A stretch of DNA of 42,567 nucleotides, from sequence record SRR31156797_1634, one strand, 5' to 3'. The position numbers were made by a program, and so were the translations under genes. A model generated the notes under the pieces. That model was not told the origin of the DNA. It did not search any database and worked only from the letters and a program-made list of their open reading frames with translations. Below, one piece after another: positions 1,276 to 23,808 of the stretch (position 1 is the stretch's first letter; the number at the start of each line of letters is the position of its first letter).

Positions 1276-1789
1276 GTTCAAAACTATACTCCCCCTGCTA
1301 CTCTTAACAATTATAGCCGGATGTGCATCGCGAAGCACAATCGATCCTACTAACCCCGCAGATTCATCCACCTATCTGCTGCAACATTCCGGGGTGCTCT
1401 CCATCGCGGAAAAGCGGATGCCCTTGCGCGGCATGCTGCAACTCAAACCGAAGCAACGAAGCGCACGGGTGGTCATGCTCAATGACATGGGCATGAAACT
1501 ACTGGTCGCTGAAATCACTGCCGATAATGCTGGCGGTTTTGAATCTAAAAAACTTTTCGTCTCACCTTTCTTGCGTATGATTCCGCCTTTTTATGATGAA
1601 TCCATGCGTTGCATCTATGAAATGTACCTCGCCCCGCAACACGCGAATTCCCAAAAGGCAAATATCACCACCGAAGGCAAAAAAAGAATCGGCAACCGTG
1701 AATTCGCAGCCCATACCATCATCAACGATCCGCAAGGCAACTACAGTCTTGAACTTTTTCTTGATTCCGGATCACAAAAGGATTCTTAA
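1268..1789 (+). CDS. Lipoprotein, DUF3261-like accessory protein of the lipid cluster
   Basis: ATG 1268 follows GGAGG. MHKFKTILPLLLLTIIAG-C has a lipobox. 'VVMLNDMGMKLL' resembles DUF3261 proteins (family call from recall). Confidence 0.65.
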   Translation: MHKFKTILPLLLLTIIAGCASRSTIDPTNPADSSTYLLQHSGVLSIAEKRMPLRGMLQLKPKQRSARVVMLNDMGMKLLVAEITADNAGGFESKKLFVSPFLRMIPPFYDESMRCIYEMYLAPQHANSQKANITTEGKKRIGNREFAAHTIINDPQGNYSLELFLDSGSQKDS

Positions 1790-14430: not shown

Positions 14431-16173
14431 TTACTTTTTAGCTCCACTGCCCAGCTTGGCAATCTGCCCCTGCAGCATTTTCAGCTTTCCGCCATAGTTG
14501 GACAGCACAGCATCAAGACGGGCATATTTTGCTTTAAGGGTTTTCTCCAGATTTTCCAGACGGGTCTTCTCATAATCAAGTTTCTTATCAATATTCTTAA
14601 TAATTCCGCTGTAATTTTCGCTGATGATGTTCAGGATACCTGTCTTGGAGTTGGTCATATCCTTCAGGGTCTCAATCATTTCAATTGTTTTCCCGGTCTT
14701 GATGCCAGCGGTGCCTGAATATGTACCATCACTCTTGTTATCCACCCGAATAGCCATACCTAACCCGGACATATCATCGGCAGTAATTTCCCATCCGGAA
14801 ATCCGCGCAGCTTTGCCATTGATAGTAGCAGAAGTTATTTTACCGCCGCTGACGGTATATGAAACTTCGTGACTTCCGGGCTTAGTGACCCCTTTGACTA
14901 AAGACTTAATCGTAAAATTCGGAGAACTGGTGCTGGCTTCATAATCAGCGGAAAAGAGCTTGGCCACCCCGTCCGGATTATCTTTCATGGCTTTTTCAAA
15001 TTTTTCATCATCAATCTTCAACAATCCAAAATTGGGTGAACTCTGGTCTGTCTCTGTTTCAATGCCAAGGGTACTCAATGTGTTGTATTTGTCTCCGGTT
15101 CCGGTTTTGCCATTATAATTATTAAACCCCTGTCCCTTTGTGGCGGTAATATCCTTAAAACGATGAGAAGCCAGTTGAACTCCATAATTCCCGGTAAGAA
15201 TAGAGCCTTTATCCTTGTCTTTTGTTGTATCAACCTTGGAAATATCACGCAGAGCCTGGCGCACCACATTCACCTGCTTAACAAATTCGCGCACGTTTTC
15301 AATAATCTTCTCGGTATCGGTATTTACGTTGATTATGACCGAGTCCGGGGAAGTGGTTTTTTTCAGATTAAGGGTCAGGCCCTTGGAACCGTCGGTAACT
15401 GTGTTGGTATCACGTTCAATCCAATTAGCGGCCCCTTCAGGAAATCCATCAATCTTAATTTTAGAATTCTGACCTTGCTGCAGATTGGTCATAGACGCTG
15501 GCGTAAGGGCACCAAGAGTGGTGGCACTATTGAAAGTGATGCGGTTAGCCTCCCCCATTTTCAAGCTGCTGAATTTGAGACGAAACTCACTCCCGGTCTT
15601 AATAGCTTCCACCTGCACCAAGCCCTGCAACTCCGTAGTGGCATTAAGCATCTTAACCAGCCCCTGAACGGTTGTTCCTCCCGGAACATCAATATTTGCA
15701 GTCTTGCCCCCGCAACTGAGGCTGATCTTGCTGGCCGTGGGAGAAATGACATCCTTTTCCGATGCAAACCCGGAGCTGGAAGTCCAGATATCATTACGGG
15801 CAAGTTGCTTGATCTCAACTTTGTAAGGCGAAGTGGGCGCTGTGCTGTCTGCTGTGGCAGTTACACATGATGAATCTGAAGAAGAAGTAACCCGGCCCAT
15901 AAATTTACCGATGGAATCCATCTTTTTAAGCGAGGAACTCAACTCGGTCATCTTAGTGTTGAGATCCTTGAGACTTTCCTGTTTCTTAACCCACTGAGAT
16001 TTCCAATTCTCCAGCCTGCGTTGGTGGAAGCCCTGTTGCTTGATGGTATTTTTTACAATCTCCCCAAAATCAGTCCCGTTACCCAGCTTTTCGAACTTGG
16101 TTTTCCCGGACCAGTAACTGGAGGTTGTCCCGGCGGTGGAGACCTGTGCCCCTACTTTTCCTACATCTGCCAT
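14431..16173 (-). CDS. fliD: Flagellar filament cap protein
   Basis: LGNGTDF N-terminal motif, VEIKQLA, and C-terminal coiled coil ...LKAKYARLDAVLS. Confidence 0.9.
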   Translation of the reverse strand: MADVGKVGAQVSTAGTTSSYWSGKTKFEKLGNGTDFGEIVKNTIKQQGFHQRRLENWKSQWVKKQESLKDLNTKMTELSSSLKKMDSIGKFMGRVTSSSDSSCVTATADSTAPTSPYKVEIKQLARNDIWTSSSGFASEKDVISPTASKISLSCGGKTANIDVPGGTTVQGLVKMLNATTELQGLVQVEAIKTGSEFRLKFSSLKMGEANRITFNSATTLGALTPASMTNLQQGQNSKIKIDGFPEGAANWIERDTNTVTDGSKGLTLNLKKTTSPDSVIINVNTDTEKIIENVREFVKQVNVVRQALRDISKVDTTKDKDKGSILTGNYGVQLASHRFKDITATKGQGFNNYNGKTGTGDKYNTLSTLGIETETDQSSPNFGLLKIDDEKFEKAMKDNPDGVAKLFSADYEASTSSPNFTIKSLVKGVTKPGSHEVSYTVSGGKITSATINGKAARISGWEITADDMSGLGMAIRVDNKSDGTYSGTAGIKTGKTIEMIETLKDMTNSKTGILNIISENYSGIIKNIDKKLDYEKTRLENLEKTLKAKYARLDAVLSNYGGKLKMLQGQIAKLGSGAKK

Positions 16174-16185
16174 GGCCTTTCTCCC

Positions 16186-17679
16186 TTACATATAATTGAG
16201 GATGGACATTTCATTAATCATCCGCGAACTGCGGGCCACGACCTCATAGATAAGCTTACTCTGCTTTAACTCACTGAGCAGTTCCCCAAGATCGGCATCT
16301 TCCAGCCTGCTAAGAAGAGTTGTGTTGTTGTCCTTACGGATATCTGCCAGTTTTTCGGCACTGGCCGCCCGGTTCATGCGCGCGCCTATTTCTGCGGCTT
16401 TCATTTCCACATGCTCATGGACTTTTTTCAATTCGGCCACGCATTCACCGATGCCATTCTTGTCATTTGTCTCAACGTAACCGATCAGCTTACCCAATGT
16501 TTCAAAGAGGTTGCTGTTCTTGTCGTCTGGAGAAGGAGTCGGGTTTGAAGCTCCGGGCTTGGTATAAATCCCGCCAAAAATTTCCTTGCCCACATTGTTG
16601 ACCCGTATGGAACGGCTCTGGGAGATATCAAGACGCAAGTCTGCAGTATTGGGGCGAATAACAAACTGGTCGCCCTTGTTGAAGGTAGTGCCTGCACCGG
16701 GAGAGAGAGTCAGACTGCCGCCGGGAACTTCAAGGCGGGTATCTGCGGAAACATTGGAATGAACCCAGCTGGCCCCATTATCAAGACTGTAGGAATAGGT
16801 GATGGGCGGAGTGTTTACGTCCCCGTTTTTATCGATTTGAACCAACACATCTGAATGAAATTTACCATCAGCCCCAGTATTGACTTGGGTATTCCCATAC
16901 TTGATGACATTTAGATCATCGTTATCATCCCCGTGATACTGAAGAGCTGGACGGACGATCAGCCGACTCCCGGTTCCCTTGTCCGTAAATTCAGTGACTG
17001 CGGTCCCGTTCTTCAGTTCCACTGTAGCCGGACCAAGATCAAGTTCAGTATCTCCGGGATTCAAAGTGCCGGTTTTCCATGTCTTGCCGCCGTCGGAACT
17101 ATATTTATAGTTGATGGTATCGGTGCCCACGGTTCCGCCGGAAGTGAAACGGACATCCACCGAACTATCCGAAGCACCTTTCACAGCAACAACAGATCCC
17201 GCAGGCAGGTTCGGATCGGTTGTTGTGGCATGCAGGGTTTGCTCGTAAGCGTTGGTCTCCAACTTATGTCCGGCAAAAATGGATTTGCCCCCGAACTCGG
17301 TATTGGACTTATTGAGCAGATTGCCCAGAATCCCGCGCAAATTCTGGCCGATGGAACGACGCTGTTCAGCGGTCAGAGTTCCGGTAGCAGCCTGTTCAGC
17401 TAAAGTCTTGATACGTCCGATATCAGTACTGGTCTGCTGCAGCACTCCGTCAGCCAGACTCAGCCAGCTGGAGGCGGTCTTGATGTTCTTAATGTACTGC
17501 TTGGTCTCCAACCCGAAGGAACGGCAATTGATAATTCCACCCATGGCCGCCGGATCATCAGAAGGGACCAGCACCCTCTTCTGCGCGGAGTTACGCATCT
17601 GCGCCTCAGCCATGCGACTCATGGATGAGTTCAAGTTATAAAGCGACATGTTGAAAATCTGATTAGTAGAAATCCTCAT
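16186..17679 (-). CDS. flgL: Flagellar hook-associated protein 3
   Basis: MRIST start, PSDDP, IFAGHK and IGARMNR...LEDADL; position directly after flgK. Confidence 0.9.
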   Translation of the reverse strand: MRISTNQIFNMSLYNLNSSMSRMAEAQMRNSAQKRVLVPSDDPAAMGGIINCRSFGLETKQYIKNIKTASSWLSLADGVLQQTSTDIGRIKTLAEQAATGTLTAEQRRSIGQNLRGILGNLLNKSNTEFGGKSIFAGHKLETNAYEQTLHATTTDPNLPAGSVVAVKGASDSSVDVRFTSGGTVGTDTINYKYSSDGGKTWKTGTLNPGDTELDLGPATVELKNGTAVTEFTDKGTGSRLIVRPALQYHGDDNDDLNVIKYGNTQVNTGADGKFHSDVLVQIDKNGDVNTPPITYSYSLDNGASWVHSNVSADTRLEVPGGSLTLSPGAGTTFNKGDQFVIRPNTADLRLDISQSRSIRVNNVGKEIFGGIYTKPGASNPTPSPDDKNSNLFETLGKLIGYVETNDKNGIGECVAELKKVHEHVEMKAAEIGARMNRAASAEKLADIRKDNNTTLLSRLEDADLGELLSELKQSKLIYEVVARSSRMINEMSILNYM

Positions 17680-17688
17680 CTCAGCCTC

Positions 17689-19773
17689 CTACTTAAGCGA
17701 AAGCAACGTTTCGAACATTTCGTTGGCAGTTTTAATCAGCTTGGAAGCAGTCTGAAACGAGCGCTGATAGCTGGTGATAATATCCATCTCTTCATCAATA
17801 CTGACCCCGCCCACAGATTCCTGTTTATCCACCAGCCCCTTAAGAACTGTCTGGGATATAGACAGGTTGGCCTTGGCATCAGCCGTGTGCGAACCGACAG
17901 TAGACACAAGGGAGGAATAGAAATCATTGAAGCTGGACTCAGTGGATGTTCCCCCGGCCTTAAAGTTGATGTTCTTCTTTCCGGCAAGAGCAGCCACCGC
18001 CCGCGCGGTGCTATTATCACCCTTGTTAACTTCCCCGGCTCCATTCACATGGGCAGCAGCAACCTTTGATGGATCAGCCTCAATGGATGAATGCACTTTA
18101 ATGGAAGTGGCATCATGCCCTTCAAAGAAAGTATTGAGTCCCAATCCGGCCAACACTCCACTGCTGTCGTTGGAAAACTGGAACCGATTATCACCCAGCC
18201 CTTTGATGGAAAGCTTGCCGTTGGTGATCACGGCCTGAGCTTTTCCGGGGAAACTGGCATTTATGGCGTCACGGACATTTTCAAGGGAATGAACTGCGGG
18301 ATCAAAATTTGTTTTTCCCGGTGCAATGGAGGAGAAATCCACAGCTGAAACTGAAACTTTATTTCCGGTATTGGCATTGTAAAAAGCCATGCTGAAGCTG
18401 CCCGAAGTAAGCTTGTCCGCATAAGGCAGATTGCTCTTGGCAAGGGGGACAGAGCTATCACGCACCTCGTAGGTTCCGATGGTATTGGCATGATTGACCA
18501 GCCCCGCCCCCTGTGAATGGGCGCGGTTAACTTCCCAAGCAATGGATTTAGCGAACGCATTCAACTTATCAATGTAAGAACCGATCTTCTCATCACGAGC
18601 ACGGAGCAGTCCGGCAATAGAACCGCCTTTCAAACGGCGTTCACCATTATTTCCGGCGAGGGGACTTACTGATTCCGAAGTGGAGCTGTTCCGGTACCAG
18701 CGAACTTCTGTCTTCGGAGTCAAGGTGAAACGGTCCCCATCCTTGAGCTGAGTAGTGGCCGCGCTGGCACTGCTGCCCGCTTTACCGAACCAGAGTTTGA
18801 CCCCGCCCACGGTCACGGCATCATTCTGCCCTCCGGCATTGAACAATTTTTCGCTGCCGTCCGGGTTACTGATCCAGGTCTTGCCGCCATCCCGCGAAAC
18901 CTTGAACTGCGCTGCCGGGGCTACGCCGGAGGCATTACCATTGCTGACCACCTGAATGGTCAATTCTTCACCGGACTGGCCGCTGAAATGGACTTCATCC
19001 TTGAAAGGGGAACCAAGAACCAATGAATTACGGACTCCGCCCTGTTCAAACTTCAGTTCAAAAGCTTTATCTCCCTCAACCAGCTTCTGCCCTTCGCCCA
19101 GTGAAACAATGACCTGACCGGAAGGCTCTTCCTGCACACTGATATCCACCAGTGAAGACAGTCCGCGCAGCACCACATCCCTGCGATCCAGCAAAGTATT
19201 GTCCTTGGGATTGGCAATGATCTGTTTATTCAGCTCAGCCAGTTCCTTGATAGCGTCATTGGCCTTGCCAACTTCCTGCTTCAAATGACTGGTGATCAAA
19301 TCCTGCTGGCGGCGCAGGTCTCCCACAACCGAACCCAGCTGGGCGGAAAACTTCTGAGCCGCGCCAACAAGGGCAACCCTGTTCGCACCCAACTGCGGAT
19401 TATTGGCAAGAGATTGCCATGCAGCCCACATGTCGCCCATGGATTTGCTGATTCCGGCGTCTTTGCTTTCCACAAAGAACTTCTCAACCATGGAAAGGTT
19501 ACCGGCCTCAGCATTCCAGCGCGAAAATTCCGGACTTTTGGCCAGCACTCCCTGCTCAAGGAACTGGGACAGATTTCGCCTGATACTATCAACGGACGCC
19601 CCGGTACCGTAAGACCAGCGACCTTCCCTGATCGACATGCTCTCGTCCTGAATAACGGTCCTGCGCCGGTATCCGGGGGTCTTAAGGTTAGCTACGTTGT
19701 TACCGTGAACAGACAAGCCTATCTGGGCGTTCTGCATGGCTCCGCGGCCTATGGAAAATATATTGCCAAGCAT
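17689..19773 (-). CDS. flgK: Flagellar hook-associated protein 1
   Basis: GNNVANLKTPGYRR, LLDRRD, GGSIAGLL and GVSIDEEM...YQRSFQTASKLI. Confidence 0.92.
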   Translation of the reverse strand: MLGNIFSIGRGAMQNAQIGLSVHGNNVANLKTPGYRRRTVIQDESMSIREGRWSYGTGASVDSIRRNLSQFLEQGVLAKSPEFSRWNAEAGNLSMVEKFFVESKDAGISKSMGDMWAAWQSLANNPQLGANRVALVGAAQKFSAQLGSVVGDLRRQQDLITSHLKQEVGKANDAIKELAELNKQIIANPKDNTLLDRRDVVLRGLSSLVDISVQEEPSGQVIVSLGEGQKLVEGDKAFELKFEQGGVRNSLVLGSPFKDEVHFSGQSGEELTIQVVSNGNASGVAPAAQFKVSRDGGKTWISNPDGSEKLFNAGGQNDAVTVGGVKLWFGKAGSSASAATTQLKDGDRFTLTPKTEVRWYRNSSTSESVSPLAGNNGERRLKGGSIAGLLRARDEKIGSYIDKLNAFAKSIAWEVNRAHSQGAGLVNHANTIGTYEVRDSSVPLAKSNLPYADKLTSGSFSMAFYNANTGNKVSVSAVDFSSIAPGKTNFDPAVHSLENVRDAINASFPGKAQAVITNGKLSIKGLGDNRFQFSNDSSGVLAGLGLNTFFEGHDATSIKVHSSIEADPSKVAAAHVNGAGEVNKGDNSTARAVAALAGKKNINFKAGGTSTESSFNDFYSSLVSTVGSHTADAKANLSISQTVLKGLVDKQESVGGVSIDEEMDIITSYQRSFQTASKLIKTANEMFETLLSLK

Positions 19774-19806
19774 GGTGTGCTCCTGTGCCTACGGCAATTA
19801 AATTAA

Positions 19807-21396
19807 TTATCTCTTCAACTGAATCAATTCGCCTAAAAGCTGATCAGCTGTAGTGATCGCCTTACTATTGGCCTGAAAACCGCGCTGGGTGGTGATCAGC
19901 TTGACCATTTCATCCCCCACATCGACGTTGGATTGCTCCAATTTGTTGGAGGCGATGGACCCCAGCGGGCCTGTTCCGGCACGTCCTGTCAATGCAGGGC
20001 CGGAATCGCGGGTCTTGGAGAAAAGATTTCCCCCTTCGCGGCGCAACCCGTACTGGTTGTTGAAGTTGGCGAGAGTAAGCACATAGAGATCGAGCACCTG
20101 ACCATTGGAATAACGACCGGTGACAACGCCGTCGCGATCGACCTCCACGGCCTGAAGGAACCCCGCTCCGTAACCGTTCTGGGACTGGGAGTTACGGGCA
20201 TTACCGGTATCGTAGGAAGTTGAATAAGAGGCACTCCGTTTGGGAGAACTGAAGTTGGGGACCTTTGCCAAAGTAGTGCCTACGGTAGAGGCATCAGCAG
20301 GTGTCGGGGTGGACCAAGTGGGCGGATTGCTGCCGTTGCTCAAACCGAAATCAAGGGTAATGGGATTAGCTTTAGCGTCAGTAGCAAGGTTGGCATTAGC
20401 CTTTCCAAGGAAATTGGCAGTAAAAATGGGCTTACCGGACTCTGACATAGGCGAGGGAGTCCAGTTATTAAGATTCTGCATCCCCCCTGTGGCACCGCCT
20501 TTGAGAGAGAAGGAACTCATGCCGATCATCTCCCCGCGCGGGTTGAAAGTCATGGTTCCGGTCATGAGCAATCCGGCAGCGGAAGTTGTTTTCAAGGCAG
20601 TACCACCGATTGTCCGGCCATCCTCGTTAGGCGGTACAGTAACGATAAATTCATAAACCCTGTTACCAGCAGCATCAGTGGTAACGGTGTTGTCCTTGAC
20701 CGGGTCAAAATAGATAGTCAGGTCATGGGAGGTTCCGCTTTCATCAAAAGTCTTGATGGTGTTCTGAAAGGCATAGCGGTCTGCCGGAAGGGGCGGATTA
20801 TTTTTCCCGTTCCAAGTTTGATGCAGAGAAAAGAACGGCTGTCCGGCCACGTTGCATTTGTCCTCGGCCTTGGAGCTGAGGTTGACGTTCATAGCAATAT
20901 CGGAGGTACGCACCGGCGGCGACTGAAAACGGTCCAGTTTAATATCTGTGGGAGTACCGATGATGTCCGGTTTACCGCTTTCGGAATTAGGATTGACCTT
21001 CCAGCCCTGCACTACATAGCCGTGAGGATCAGTAAGTACACCCTGCTTGTTGAAGATAAAATTCCCGGCCCGGGTATAATAAGTTGCATCAGTGTCCGGG
21101 TGACGGACGGAGAAAAAGCCCTTGCCGCCAATAGCTACGTTTGTGGCCTCAGACGATGGCTCGAAGGGGCCCTGCTTGAAATCACCGTAGATGGAAGCGA
21201 TGCCGACACCATGGCCGACCTGCCCGAGCCCAGCGCCGGTGTTGACCGCGCTGTAAAAAGCATCTTCAAAAGAAGTACGCGCTCCCTTAAAACCGATGGT
21301 GTTGCCGTTGGCAAGGTTGTTGCCGATAATGCTCATAGCCTGACTGTGAGCACGGATGCCGCTGATACCGTTATACATTGATCCTTTCAAACCCAT
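19807..21396 (-). CDS. flgE: Flagellar hook protein
   Basis: IGNNLANGNTIGFK, YYTRAGNF and LEQSNVD...LITTQRGFQANSK. Confidence 0.95.
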   Translation of the reverse strand: MGLKGSMYNGISGIRAHSQAMSIIGNNLANGNTIGFKGARTSFEDAFYSAVNTGAGLGQVGHGVGIASIYGDFKQGPFEPSSEATNVAIGGKGFFSVRHPDTDATYYTRAGNFIFNKQGVLTDPHGYVVQGWKVNPNSESGKPDIIGTPTDIKLDRFQSPPVRTSDIAMNVNLSSKAEDKCNVAGQPFFSLHQTWNGKNNPPLPADRYAFQNTIKTFDESGTSHDLTIYFDPVKDNTVTTDAAGNRVYEFIVTVPPNEDGRTIGGTALKTTSAAGLLMTGTMTFNPRGEMIGMSSFSLKGGATGGMQNLNNWTPSPMSESGKPIFTANFLGKANANLATDAKANPITLDFGLSNGSNPPTWSTPTPADASTVGTTLAKVPNFSSPKRSASYSTSYDTGNARNSQSQNGYGAGFLQAVEVDRDGVVTGRYSNGQVLDLYVLTLANFNNQYGLRREGGNLFSKTRDSGPALTGRAGTGPLGSIASNKLEQSNVDVGDEMVKLITTQRGFQANSKAITTADQLLGELIQLKR

Positions 21397-21423
21397 GAGA
21401 ATCTCCTTTCGGTAAAAAAATAA

Positions 21424-22086
21424 TTAAGCAACAACTCTTGTCACGTTGGACAAAAGCACCTTGCGGCCATCTTCAAGCTCCAGAATATTTTGGCCACCAG
21501 CCGTATTAACGGCTTTGACCTTTCCGGAGACTTCAATATTGGCGAGAACTTTTTTACCTTTGGGGGATTCCGCACGAACTGCGATCCTGTACTGACCGTC
21601 ATCTGCGGCATTGCCGTCTTTATCGTTACCATCCCATTGAAAATCAAATTTTCCGGCAGCCTTGCTACCCATTTCCACAGAGCGGATCAATCCACCGTCT
21701 TTATCATAAATGTCCACATAAACAGACTTGCAGGCTACAGGGAGGGAGATGTTGGCGGAAGTGATATCCGAACCATCTTTGGCCACACCGAATCCTTTGG
21801 CCATGACTGACTTGCCGATGTAACCGGTAGCGTTAACACCGATCACGGTCTTAACTGTCTCAGTCAGGCCATCCATTGCCTTGGAAATATTGGTGAGTCT
21901 TTCAACGGTAGAAAACTGGGCCAGCTGAGCCAGCTGTTCCTTGTTGTCCATGGGATTGACGGGGTCCTGATTCTTGAGTTGGGTAACAAAAAGTTTCAGG
22001 AAAGCGTCTTTGTTAAGATCCTTACTGGGAGTCTTAGGCTTGGCGTTCTTATTTACATTATTTAAATACGTAGTGGCGTCGATCAT
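21424..22086 (-). CDS. flgD: Flagellar hook cap (scaffolding) protein
   Basis: FLKLFVTQLKNQDPVNPMD...QLAQFS and FQWDG motifs; AGGAGG RBS. Confidence 0.95.
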   Translation of the reverse strand: MIDATTYLNNVNKNAKPKTPSKDLNKDAFLKLFVTQLKNQDPVNPMDNKEQLAQLAQFSTVERLTNISKAMDGLTETVKTVIGVNATGYIGKSVMAKGFGVAKDGSDITSANISLPVACKSVYVDIYDKDGGLIRSVEMGSKAAGKFDFQWDGNDKDGNAADDGQYRIAVRAESPKGKKVLANIEVSGKVKAVNTAGGQNILELEDGRKVLLSNVTRVVA

Positions 22087-22100
22087 GATTTCCTCCTGTT

Positions 22101-22245
22101 CTGCACAACAGCTTGGGTCCGGCGTGAAATACGCAAGACAAGTTGATGCGCCTCAAGGAGGCAATCAGCCTATGAACCGGGATTCGGCATGATCAAGGCA
22201 GGAAAGAAACAGTTGATGAAGGGGTAACTGTTTCCAGCTGTGCAG
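22101..22245 (-). other. Candidate structured RNA leader upstream of flgD
   Basis: Closing stem CTGCACAGCTGG / CCAAGCTGTTGTGCAG with bulges; 9-bp hairpin at 22206-22234; small hairpin GCCTC-CTT-GAGGC at 22150-22162. Confidence 0.4.
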
Positions 22246-22279: not shown

Positions 22280-22594
22280 TCACGCCATGACCTTGAACTC
22301 CCGGTCATTATCGTTATCTGAATCTTTTTCTTCAACAAGCTCCTTGGCTTTTTCAATGCAGTGTCCGCCGAAAGGGGCGACTACCGCTCCTTGGAGGTTG
22401 CGCCTCATCTCCATGACAGCCTTTCTGCAAGACTGGCACTCAGCAAGATGGGCCTCAAGGCTGCTGACCTGTTCATCGGTAGCAGTTCCGTCGAGATACA
22501 TGCATATCTCATCGATTTCCGGGCAGGCAGGAGTCGGTCCGAAAGGAAGGTCCTTATCCGTGCGGCTGCAACTTTTACGTCCGGTTCCGTCCAT
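22280..22594 (-). CDS. Small soluble zf-HC2 (ZAS) anti-sigma-factor-like protein
   Basis: YLDG...LEAHLAECQSC (HxxxCxxC), no transmembrane segment, directly downstream of an ECF sigma gene, GAGGTG RBS. Confidence 0.82.
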   Translation of the reverse strand: MDGTGRKSCSRTDKDLPFGPTPACPEIDEICMYLDGTATDEQVSSLEAHLAECQSCRKAVMEMRRNLQGAVVAPFGGHCIEKAKELVEEKDSDNDNDREFKVMA

Positions 22595-22667
22595 GGAACA
22601 CCTCGTGTTGTTTTGTCTGCCGATTCATCCATGCACCGACAGGGTTTGCTGTGTCCATTAAATCCAT
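22584..22667 (-). promoter_or_regulatory. Cluster of CsrA/RsmA-type ANGGA sites in the anti-sigma leader
   Basis: Four ATGGA within about 80 nt. Two lie in ANGGAN hexaloops: GTTCC-ATGGAC-GGAAC (22584-22599, contains the start codon) and TGTCGGTGC-ATGGAT-GAATCGGCA (22618-22641). Confidence 0.6.
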
Positions 22668-22689: not shown

Positions 22690-23277
22690 CTAACGGGTCA
22701 GTACATAAGATTCTCCACTGACTCCGTGGTAGGAACGAAGCTTAATCAGGGCCTTATGCTTGGCGCTCCTGACTGACTGTTCCTTGATTCCGATAAAATC
22801 GGAAATTTCTGAAATATCTAGCCCGTCCTCAAAGAAAAGCTTCACAATAAGCTTCTGGCGAGGAGAAAGCAGCTGCTCCGGAATATCCAGTCCTTCCTGA
22901 ACCGGATCTGCAGGAGCCTCAAGTTCGTTAATAAAGTCATCCAAAGGAGCTAAACAATACACCCCCTTGCGCAAAAAATCCATGGTCACACTTCTGGAAA
23001 TGACCATCAGCCAGGTTGTAAGCTTGGCTTTATGTGGATCATATCTTTTTAACAGACTTCTATCATTCTGTACAAGACGCAGGAAAACGTTCTGACAAAT
23101 ATCATCAGCATGATGCGGAGAGTAGAACTTAAGCTTACTCTTTAATGTATTATTGATGGTAAAATAAATTATCCCAGAATATTTTTCCACAAAAGTATTC
23201 CAAGAGGACCTATCACCTTCAGTACACTTTCTGATAATATTTACTATTGCCTTCTGTTCTAAGCTCAAAACAATCAC
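22690..23277 (-). CDS. ECF-family sigma-70 factor
   Basis: Region 2 (ADDICQNVFLRL...LTTWLMVISRSVTMDFLRK) and region 4 (LSPRQKLIVKLFF...SEISDFIGIKEQSVRSAKHKALIKLR). GTG start is uncertain. Confidence 0.88.
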   Translation of the reverse strand: MIVLSLEQKAIVNIIRKCTEGDRSSWNTFVEKYSGIIYFTINNTLKSKLKFYSPHHADDICQNVFLRLVQNDRSLLKRYDPHKAKLTTWLMVISRSVTMDFLRKGVYCLAPLDDFINELEAPADPVQEGLDIPEQLLSPRQKLIVKLFFEDGLDISEISDFIGIKEQSVRSAKHKALIKLRSYHGVSGESYVLTR

Positions 23278-23808
23278 CCGATGTCTTTGTTTAATGCTTC
23301 TTAATACTTTCCCTTCATCATAACAGGCTGATTGCCTCCATGGGCATTCTTACAACTGTATACGCAAGGAAAAACCGAAACATCCCCACCTACTTAATCA
23401 AAACTTGATAAAAACTAATCTTTCTTAATTTAATCAAGTCAAAACAAGACCTTAACGGAAACAACTTTTTTCCATTTTACCGAGGGATAAAGACTCATGT
23501 CCCTTACTCATTAAATCCGGCGCGAGGCTGATTTTTCAAAGTAAGCTCATGCCGTAAATACGAGAAACGTATTTGAACTTGAATGAAATCAAAAAAAGTC
23601 CACGCTGATATTCAAAATTGGCAGGAAAGAAACCTGCCGGATTGGTTGTAAGTCAACTTTATATAACTTTATAAATCATCTCAATAGGCAATATTTTCCG
23701 CACATTATAACACAAGAAGAGCATCAAGCCTTGCACTCAAAAAAGCTCATATCTTCAACAGGTTTAACCCAAACAACATCAAGAAAAAGACTTTATCACC
23801 ACAACTTA

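Follow-up and report, generated by a model that had tools for sequence, protein, structure and literature searches.

A conserved pair of GGA hairpins between an ECF-type sigma gene and its probable anti-sigma gene in Maridesulfovibrio, a candidate dual-site CsrA operator

The sigma/anti-sigma locus and its intercistronic hairpins

The window analyzed here is the whole 42,567-nucleotide (nt) stretch of sequence record SRR31156797_1634. Its minus strand carries a tightly packed row of genes for an extracytoplasmic function (ECF)-type sigma factor, a zf-HC2 anti-sigma factor, and the flagellar products of flgD, flgE, flgK, a flgL-like gene, and fliD, the row extending to position 14431. Between the sigma and anti-sigma genes lie two hairpins, HP1 and HP2, each of which displays a GGA motif in its loop, the second at the anti-sigma start codon itself. 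This two-hairpin element, part of a hook operon from a sulfate reducer, was examined in the window and in related loci of the genus Maridesulfovibrio and other Desulfovibrionaceae as a possible target of the regulator CsrA.

The sigma gene (positions 22690 to 23277, minus strand) starts at a GTG codon and encodes a 195-residue protein whose Pfam domain content is Sigma70_r2 and Sigma70_r4 only and which scores 59.6 bits against the NCBIfam sigma70-ECF model TIGR02937 (cut-off, 42.9). Maridesulfovibrio proteins are 96 to 97% identical to it, and the GTG/VIVL start is kept across the relatives. The gene that follows (22280 to 22594, minus strand) encodes a soluble 104-residue protein of the zinc-finger anti-sigma (ZAS) type, with a Pfam zf-HC2 score of 29.8 bits (cut-off, 22.2). 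Its H49-x3-C53-x2-C56 motif is invariant in 14 sequences, as are C24 and C31. The protein is not an RsrA equivalog, because the RsrA model scores 27.6 bits, under the cut-off of 62.5. An alternative anti-sigma start was considered and rejected: codons 14 to 31 vary synonymously, which marks them as coding, and upstream of them 22594 has the sole in-frame ATG.

A predicted complex of the two proteins scored 0.85, compared to 0.00 for the best of three controls; 51 of 78 solved complexes attained that mark, as did 2 of 108 mismatched pairs. At least 81% of the contacts agreed between runs, and the predicted local distance difference test value (pLDDT) of the partner was at least 70. The modelled contacts on sigma involve residues 18 to 103 and 118 to 163, placing the anti-sigma between regions 2 and 4. 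As the two proteins are a textbook pair type, this result may reflect their likeness to solved complexes. Together with the domain assignments, the model supports the zf-HC2 open reading frame as the anti-sigma of the ECF-type sigma encoded upstream, in agreement with a reading previously made from the letters of the window only (the sequence-only reading).

That reading had also pointed to four ATGGA motifs on the minus strand, and these are exactly where it placed them, at 22590 to 22594, 22628 to 22632, 22654 to 22658, and 22663 to 22667. ATGGA occurs 162 times on the two strands of the window compared to 115.1 ± 11.2 expected from shuffles. The cluster is the sole 78-nt stretch with at least four copies on either strand, and such a cluster arose in only 3 of 200 dinucleotide shuffles. 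The longer motif CANGGAYG occurs 20 times (12.45 expected; 20 reached in 2 of 100 shuffles), nine of them drawable in a hairpin loop with a stem of at least 5 bp. Only two of the 20 are spaced 10 to 63 nt apart on one strand, and these are the HP1 and HP2 motifs.

HP1 (22617 to 22642, minus strand) has a GC-rich stem of 7 to 8 bp, CUGUCGG(U)/(A)UCGGCAG, and an apical C-[AUGGAU]-G hexaloop, with CANGGAYG at 22626 to 22633 and GGA at 22628 to 22630; it is the proposed upstream CsrA site, at a distance of 38 nt. HP2 (22584 to 22599, minus strand), the proposed start-codon site, reads GUUCC-[AUGGAC]-GGAAC and contains both the AUG (22592 to 22594) and a GGA (22590 to 22592) in its hexaloop; it is present in the predicted minimum free energy fold. 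Folding thus recovered both hexaloops of the sequence-only reading, including the one that encloses the AUG. The anti-sigma Shine-Dalgarno (SD) sequence, GAGG (22601 to 22604), lies directly 5′ of HP2, with 6 nt between it and the AUG, and is invariant in all 16 loci compared below. The other two ATGGA motifs (22654 to 22667) are lineage specific and are possibly auxiliary sites.

Taken alone, the 141-nt spacer has an ordinary fold energy (z = −0.65), and the case therefore rests on conservation and not on the single sequence. A search of Rfam at E ≤ 1 gave only two subthreshold chance matches, both to long noncoding RNAs. HP1 was considered as an intrinsic terminator and rejected, as no U-tract follows it and a terminator scan made no call.

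Conservation and covariation among relatives

Orthologous loci were gathered by protein rather than by motif. This yielded 16 distinct loci, namely, the window, 13 genomes of the genus, and two metagenome leaders; the anti-sigma gene is carried by 13 of the 26 genomes of the genus. Five weak loci from outside the Desulfovibrionaceae (L008 to L012) were dropped as unrelated ECF sigmas. In all 16 loci both loops read CANGGAYG, with variation at the N and Y positions and a GGA-to-GGA distance of 37 to 42 nt. The base before CA is A in seven loci and G in nine, and the full ACA is therefore present in only seven. Elsewhere the spacer varies both in sequence and in length, from 56 to 170 nt. In the relative L004/L082, which has the 170-nt form, the final ~30 nt of the sigma gene, stop region included, are repeated in degenerate form within the sigma/anti-sigma spacer, which suggests a local duplication upstream of HP1.

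The stem of HP1 covaries. Pair counts were made on 14 sequences of the genus; the metagenome lineage L086, whose hairpin MAFFT misplaced, was left out of them and judged from its own fold. Three pairs have changed on both sides, and G-U intermediates are also present. In the HP1 register 96.2% of the cells are paired, compared to 12.6 to 45.6% when the register is slid, and the covariation score was matched by none of 500 shuffles. A paired fraction of 93.8% was also recorded for the HP1 stem in these 14 sequences. L086 has a longer and different HP1 stem (fold z = −4.59) around an unchanged loop, CAAGGAUG. A palindromic DNA operator was also considered for HP1 and rejected, since G-U intermediates and a rebuilding of the stem are consistent with RNA.

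HP2 is invariant in the 16 loci except at the Y position. Its 5′ arm and the SD sequence together comprise 10 noncoding bases, GAGGUGUUCC, that never change, compared to only 7 of 23 fourfold synonymous sites that are invariant in the gene. HP2 is also retained in the outgroups L052/L091 and L092, whose sigma and anti-sigma proteins are only 35 to 39% identical to those of the window; these outgroups have another GGA within the SD sequence.

Of the 14 single-sequence folds, 12 contain HP1 and HP2, as do the consensus fold and the fold of L086. The other two, those of the window sequence and of L077, have the loops paired with one another instead. Not all of the GGA motifs highlighted by the sequence-only reading are conserved to the same degree: the HP1 and HP2 loops are kept in every locus, the upstream ATGGA pair retains its first GGA in only 6 of 16 loci and its second in 8 of 16, and a further GGA in the sigma leader is missing from L084 and from the outgroups.

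Overall, the data reveal two conserved hairpins between an ECF-type sigma gene and a zf-HC2 gene, the upstream one with a covarying stem and both with a constant loop form.

CsrA, FliW, and competing explanations

csrA is present in all 26 genomes of the genus, including one with a sigma 96% identical to that of the window. In the five relatives checked, csrA is followed in each case by fliW; the two lie downstream of the main flgK-flgL genes, with a canonical flgM opposite. The csrA gene of these relatives (79 aa) overlaps fliW (150 aa), and its product extends beyond the core domain. Both proteins exceed their NCBIfam equivalog cut-offs (FliW, 165.2 versus 130). The csrA and fliW genes on which the sequence-only reading depended are thus present in the relatives checked.

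Our comparisons with known CsrA targets draw on the portions of two articles that were available (PMC7652899 and PMC4894983). [quoted passage not shown] The loops of HP1 and HP2 agree with this consensus, having the GGA in a loop of six bases, and their GGA spacing falls inside the bridging range in all 16 loci. A script was used to find the corresponding layout, i.e., ANGGA in a hairpin loop (stem of at least 5 bp) followed, 10 to 63 nt further downstream, by a GGA at the SD sequence or start codon. The layout was present in 12 of 15 flagellin leaders from three relatives (G001, G004, and G005), with compensatory stem changes between orthologues, and in one of seven flgL-like genes. Among 35 gene starts in the window it was found once, at the anti-sigma gene.

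In the flagellin loci of the same relatives (L023 to L038) a GGA hairpin loop is accompanied by a GGA in the SD sequence, e.g., GUGCA-AGGA-UGUAC followed by ACACGGAGG. One flagellin gene (L023, L024, and L028) has a sigma-54-type promoter, TGGCAC-N5-CTGCT, and others have sigma-28-like motifs, TAAAG...CGAT. A conserved intergenic element was also observed in L136 (~1490 to 1610, plus strand) and L134 (reverse strand), with pattern matches in G001 and G004 too. It consists of GCUUCC-ACGGAC-GGAAGC, which has a C-[ANGGAY]-G hexaloop, a CA[A/G]GGAUG hairpin, and a GGA followed by a terminator-like hairpin that has a U-run. The element resembles a small RNA (sRNA) and could bind or titrate CsrA.

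Taking the sequence comparisons together, we consider the 65-nt core of the spacer (22584 to 22642, minus strand) to be probably a conserved dual-site CsrA operator that represses translation of the anti-sigma between two cotranscribed genes, and would put the probability of this reading at about 0.55. A single CsrA dimer would bridge the HP1 and HP2 loops and bar the ribosome from the anti-sigma AUG, so that anti-sigma translation would drop relative to that of the cotranscribed ECF-type sigma. In the partner switch described in other bacteria, retained flagellin titrates FliW and thereby frees CsrA (PMC7652899, PMC4894983). As the genus encodes FliW beside CsrA, CsrA activity should track flagellin retention and export: it would be free while flagellin stays in the cytoplasm and be sequestered by FliW once flagellin has been exported. 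Since retained flagellin frees CsrA, the sigma would be active until filament export begins, in the absence of export, or upon its stalling, and would be silenced afterwards. CsrA binding, the direction of its effect, and the sigma regulon are what we infer here from these comparisons.

One of the nearest known arrangements is that of Bacillus subtilis hag, where one GGA site lies upstream and a second at the ribosome-binding region, CsrA binding blocks initiation, and CsrA activity reports flagellin export (PMC7652899, PMC4894983). The locus resembles the Hag-FliW-CsrA system in having one upstream site and one at the initiation region and, in the relatives, a CsrA system of the FliW type. 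It differs in that the proposed target is an anti-sigma gene inside an operon rather than flagellin, that the AUG lies within the hexaloop of the second site whereas the second site of hag covers the SD sequence, and that the organism belongs to the Desulfovibrionaceae. In Campylobacter jejuni, the flaA leader has a pair of stem-loops (SL1, SL2) with ANGGA loops and compensatory changes, and CsrA shifts the mRNA of flgM, which encodes the anti-sigma-28, and binds between genes of polycistrons, resulting in discoordinate operon regulation (PMC4894983). Two ANGGA stem-loops with compensatory changes and, as proposed here, an anti-sigma target and an intercistronic site are features shared with the present locus. 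However, C. jejuni FlgM is an anti-sigma-28 exported via the flagellum and the protein here is a ZAS anti-sigma of an ECF-type sigma, the relatives carrying in addition a canonical flgM beside csrA-fliW. E. coli CsrA represses rpoE, the gene for sigma E, through sites overlapping the SD sequence and initiation codon (PMC7652899). This too ties a Csr system to an ECF sigma module with sites at the SD and start, except that the sigma gene is repressed there and the anti-sigma would be here, with the opposite sign, and that the antagonists are the sRNAs CsrB and CsrC there and would be FliW here.

The proposed circuit can also be likened to the hook-completion checkpoint, in that the assembly state would be relayed to a sigma factor via its anti-sigma. 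Export clears FlgM once the hook is complete, so that sigma-28 comes on late. In contrast, synthesis of the ZAS anti-sigma would be lowered while flagellin is retained, so that its sigma would come on early or upon stalling, with inverse timing.

A number of observations weigh against the operator reading. HP2 never varies and hence gives no covariation signal, and its conservation could in part be at the protein level (MDGT). The stem of HP1, with 7 to 8 GC-rich pairs, is longer than the four or fewer contiguous pairs of most SELEX hairpins (PMC7652899). The bare pattern CANGGAYG-N15-45-CANGGAYG occurs 8 to 19 times per relative genome (71 times in five genomes versus 24 for the reversed control), and many of its matches appear by eye to be coding; on its own, therefore, the sequence pattern is of no diagnostic value. 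The negative set for the two-site layout is small, its 35 genes having approximate start codons. Most leaders of those distant Desulfovibrionaceae that keep the anti-sigma-like gene/flgD/flgE synteny are unlike the two-hairpin form. As regards the downstream part of the proposal, a regulon search in G001, G004, and G005 with the candidate sigma promoter, GGATGTTTC-N12-CGTATAC, found it once per genome and only upstream of sigma, with no second target, so that flgD-fliD are only putative targets of the sigma. In the portion of the literature accessible to us, no CsrA-FliW study in Desulfovibrio was found.

The constancy of HP2 also invites an explanation without CsrA, in which the hairpins are a cis-acting element for translation or mRNA stability. 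HP2 would then limit anti-sigma initiation and so fix the sigma:anti-sigma ratio, with HP1 acting as a processing or stabilizing hairpin or as a binding site for an sRNA or for an RNA-binding protein other than CsrA. HP2 does sequester the bases around the AUG without ever varying, and stoichiometry needs tuning in any sigma/anti-sigma pair. The wider mRNA has other conserved RNA-RNA complementarity (see below), so RNA structure is clearly in use at this locus. The long GC stem of HP1 is, as said, atypical of the SELEX ligands in PMC7652899. What such an element fails to explain is why the loop should be kept as CA-N-GGA-Y-G in 16 of 16 loci while the stem around it changes or is rebuilt, and why the same loop form should recur at flagellin leaders and in the sRNA-like GGA-hairpin element of the relatives; nor was any conserved complement of the loop noticed. 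We regard a CsrA-independent element as unlikely, though a serious contender.

It is more doubtful still that CsrA binds with a different outcome, i.e., polar repression or destabilization of the genes from the anti-sigma through fliD, or damping of both regulatory genes, so that free CsrA would lower hook/junction/cap expression. From sigma to fliD the genes follow one another closely, and the consensus scan called no terminator anywhere from sigma to flgD, so that an early translation block can be polar. The sigma leader has its own GGA hairpin in most members of the genus, and in E. coli it is the sigma gene rpoE itself that CsrA represses (PMC7652899). Yet strict conservation is confined to the sites flanking the anti-sigma start, the sigma start has no GGA nearby, and the GGA of the sigma leader is lost in L084 and the outgroups; moreover, the 193-nt spacer between anti-sigma and flgD is conserved and could hold a promoter of its own. 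As for the GGA motifs being a functionless product of chance or composition, ATGGA is indeed overrepresented throughout the window (162 versus 115 expected), a hairpin loop (stem of at least 5 bp) can be drawn around 22% to 32% of all GGA, and the spacer's fold energy is ordinary. Conservation across all 16 loci together with covariation of the stem, retention of HP2 in the outgroups, and the rarity of the cluster in shuffled sequence (3 of 200) speak against chance, which the comparative data already disfavour to the point of making it hardly credible.

CsrA-FliW is a post-transcriptional homeostat for flagellin. If CsrA-FliW should in addition set an ECF sigma:anti-sigma ratio, the state of assembly would be turned into a transcriptional switch for an alternative hook/junction/cap set, and a sigma and its anti-sigma could be controlled discoordinately by an intercistronic route. 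The element itself is short and sharply defined, and the presence of the module in half of the species of the genus (13 of 26 genomes) offers natural controls. While the kind of site is itself known, the printed sources, as far as they were accessible, gave no account of the proposed wiring, in which FliW feeds into a ZAS anti-sigma of an ECF sigma within a hook operon; nor did they contain a direct report linking CsrA to an anti-sigma or ECF sigma, or one on a flagellar sigma in Desulfovibrio.

Sigma leader, long-range complementarity, and flagellar gene sets

The candidate sigma promoter (23358 to 23385, minus strand) is invariant in the genus and is found upstream of sigma in the outgroups L091 and L092 as well. 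This pattern makes it a candidate for an autoregulated ECF promoter, which would put the mRNA 5′ end just before the 15-nt block described below. A promoter motif common to the sigma and flgD upstream regions was sought and rejected, as only TGCGTAT is shared and 4 of 14 loci lack it. The hairpin UGCC-CAUGGA-GGCA that the sequence-only reading had noted in the sigma 5′ leader exists and overlaps the 15-nt block, as stated there, although it lies at 23333 to 23346 on the minus strand, one base away from the stated coordinates. Its GGA is kept in 13 of the 14 genus loci, the one loss being that in L084, and is absent from the outgroups.

The sigma-leader blocks (23311 to 23339, minus strand) comprise GGAGGCAAUCAGCCU (23325 to 23339) and GAUGAAGGG (23311 to 23319). 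They are complementary to two blocks in the anti-sigma-to-flgD spacer (22157 to 22223, minus strand), AGGCUGAUUGCCUCC (22157 to 22171) and CCCUUCAUC (22215 to 22223, in a hairpin loop), respectively, in a colinear antiparallel arrangement of 15 nt and 9 nt at a distance of 1.1 kb. Three changes are seen in the 15-nt block within the genus, one compensatory and two resulting in G-U wobbles. In the outgroups L091 and L092 (~774 with ~2020) a wholly different 15-mer occupies both places, and the two copies are still perfectly complementary. This covariation points to a long-range RNA duplex that would loop out the sigma and anti-sigma cistrons. Inverted repeats of an invertible segment are a less likely explanation; all 18 loci (the 16 plus the two outgroups) share one orientation of the segment between the blocks.

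The genes downstream of the anti-sigma form a third paralogous hook/junction/cap set (14431 to 22086, minus strand), as judged from Pfam and from copy numbers in the relatives. By Pfam they are flgD (21424 to 22086), flgE (19807 to 21396), flgK (17689 to 19773), a flgL-like gene (16186 to 17679), and fliD (14431 to 16173). FlgD, FliD, and FlgK are encoded in three copies each in the operon-bearing genomes and in two copies in two genomes without the operon, which bears out the earlier suggestion that these are spare genes. In G001 the paralogous sets lie at ~0.40, ~0.95, and 1.03 to 3.38 Mb of the contig; they are the sigma operon, a flagellin-flgD-flgK-flgL-fliD cluster, and a dispersed main set with flgK-flgL-csrA-fliW.

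A hypothetical circuit from the FliW checkpoint through the sigma to the third hook/junction/cap set is plausible and would fit known partner-switch logic. In its fullest form, the Maridesulfovibrio FliW-CsrA export sensor would be wired into transcription: free CsrA would block translation of the ZAS anti-sigma and release an autoregulated ECF sigma that drives the third set, with timing inverse to that of FlgM/sigma-28, and the covarying duplex between the mRNA 5′ end and the flgD leader would loop out or excise both regulator cistrons. That all of these parts hold together is, in our estimation, doubtful. The interpretation put forward by the sequence-only reading is, overall, partly supported.

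Among 25 more distant Desulfovibrionaceae loci (L052 to L076), 20 have a small zf-HC2 gene, a weak homologue of the anti-sigma with the pattern C-P...YLDG...H-x3-C-x2-C, directly upstream of flgD-flgE. The association of an anti-sigma-like gene with the hook operon therefore extends across the family. A sigma homologue was present within the fetched flank in 8 of the 25.

In the sigma leader, a conserved upstream open reading frame was considered and rejected, its frame being broken in L084 and L051. Further upstream, at ~23540 to 23600 (minus strand), there is a conserved palindrome, AAATACG-N5-CGTATTT, with flanks AAGTTCA/TGAACTT and adjoining a sigma-54-like CGGCATGAACTTAC; this may be an additional promoter or a site for an activator.

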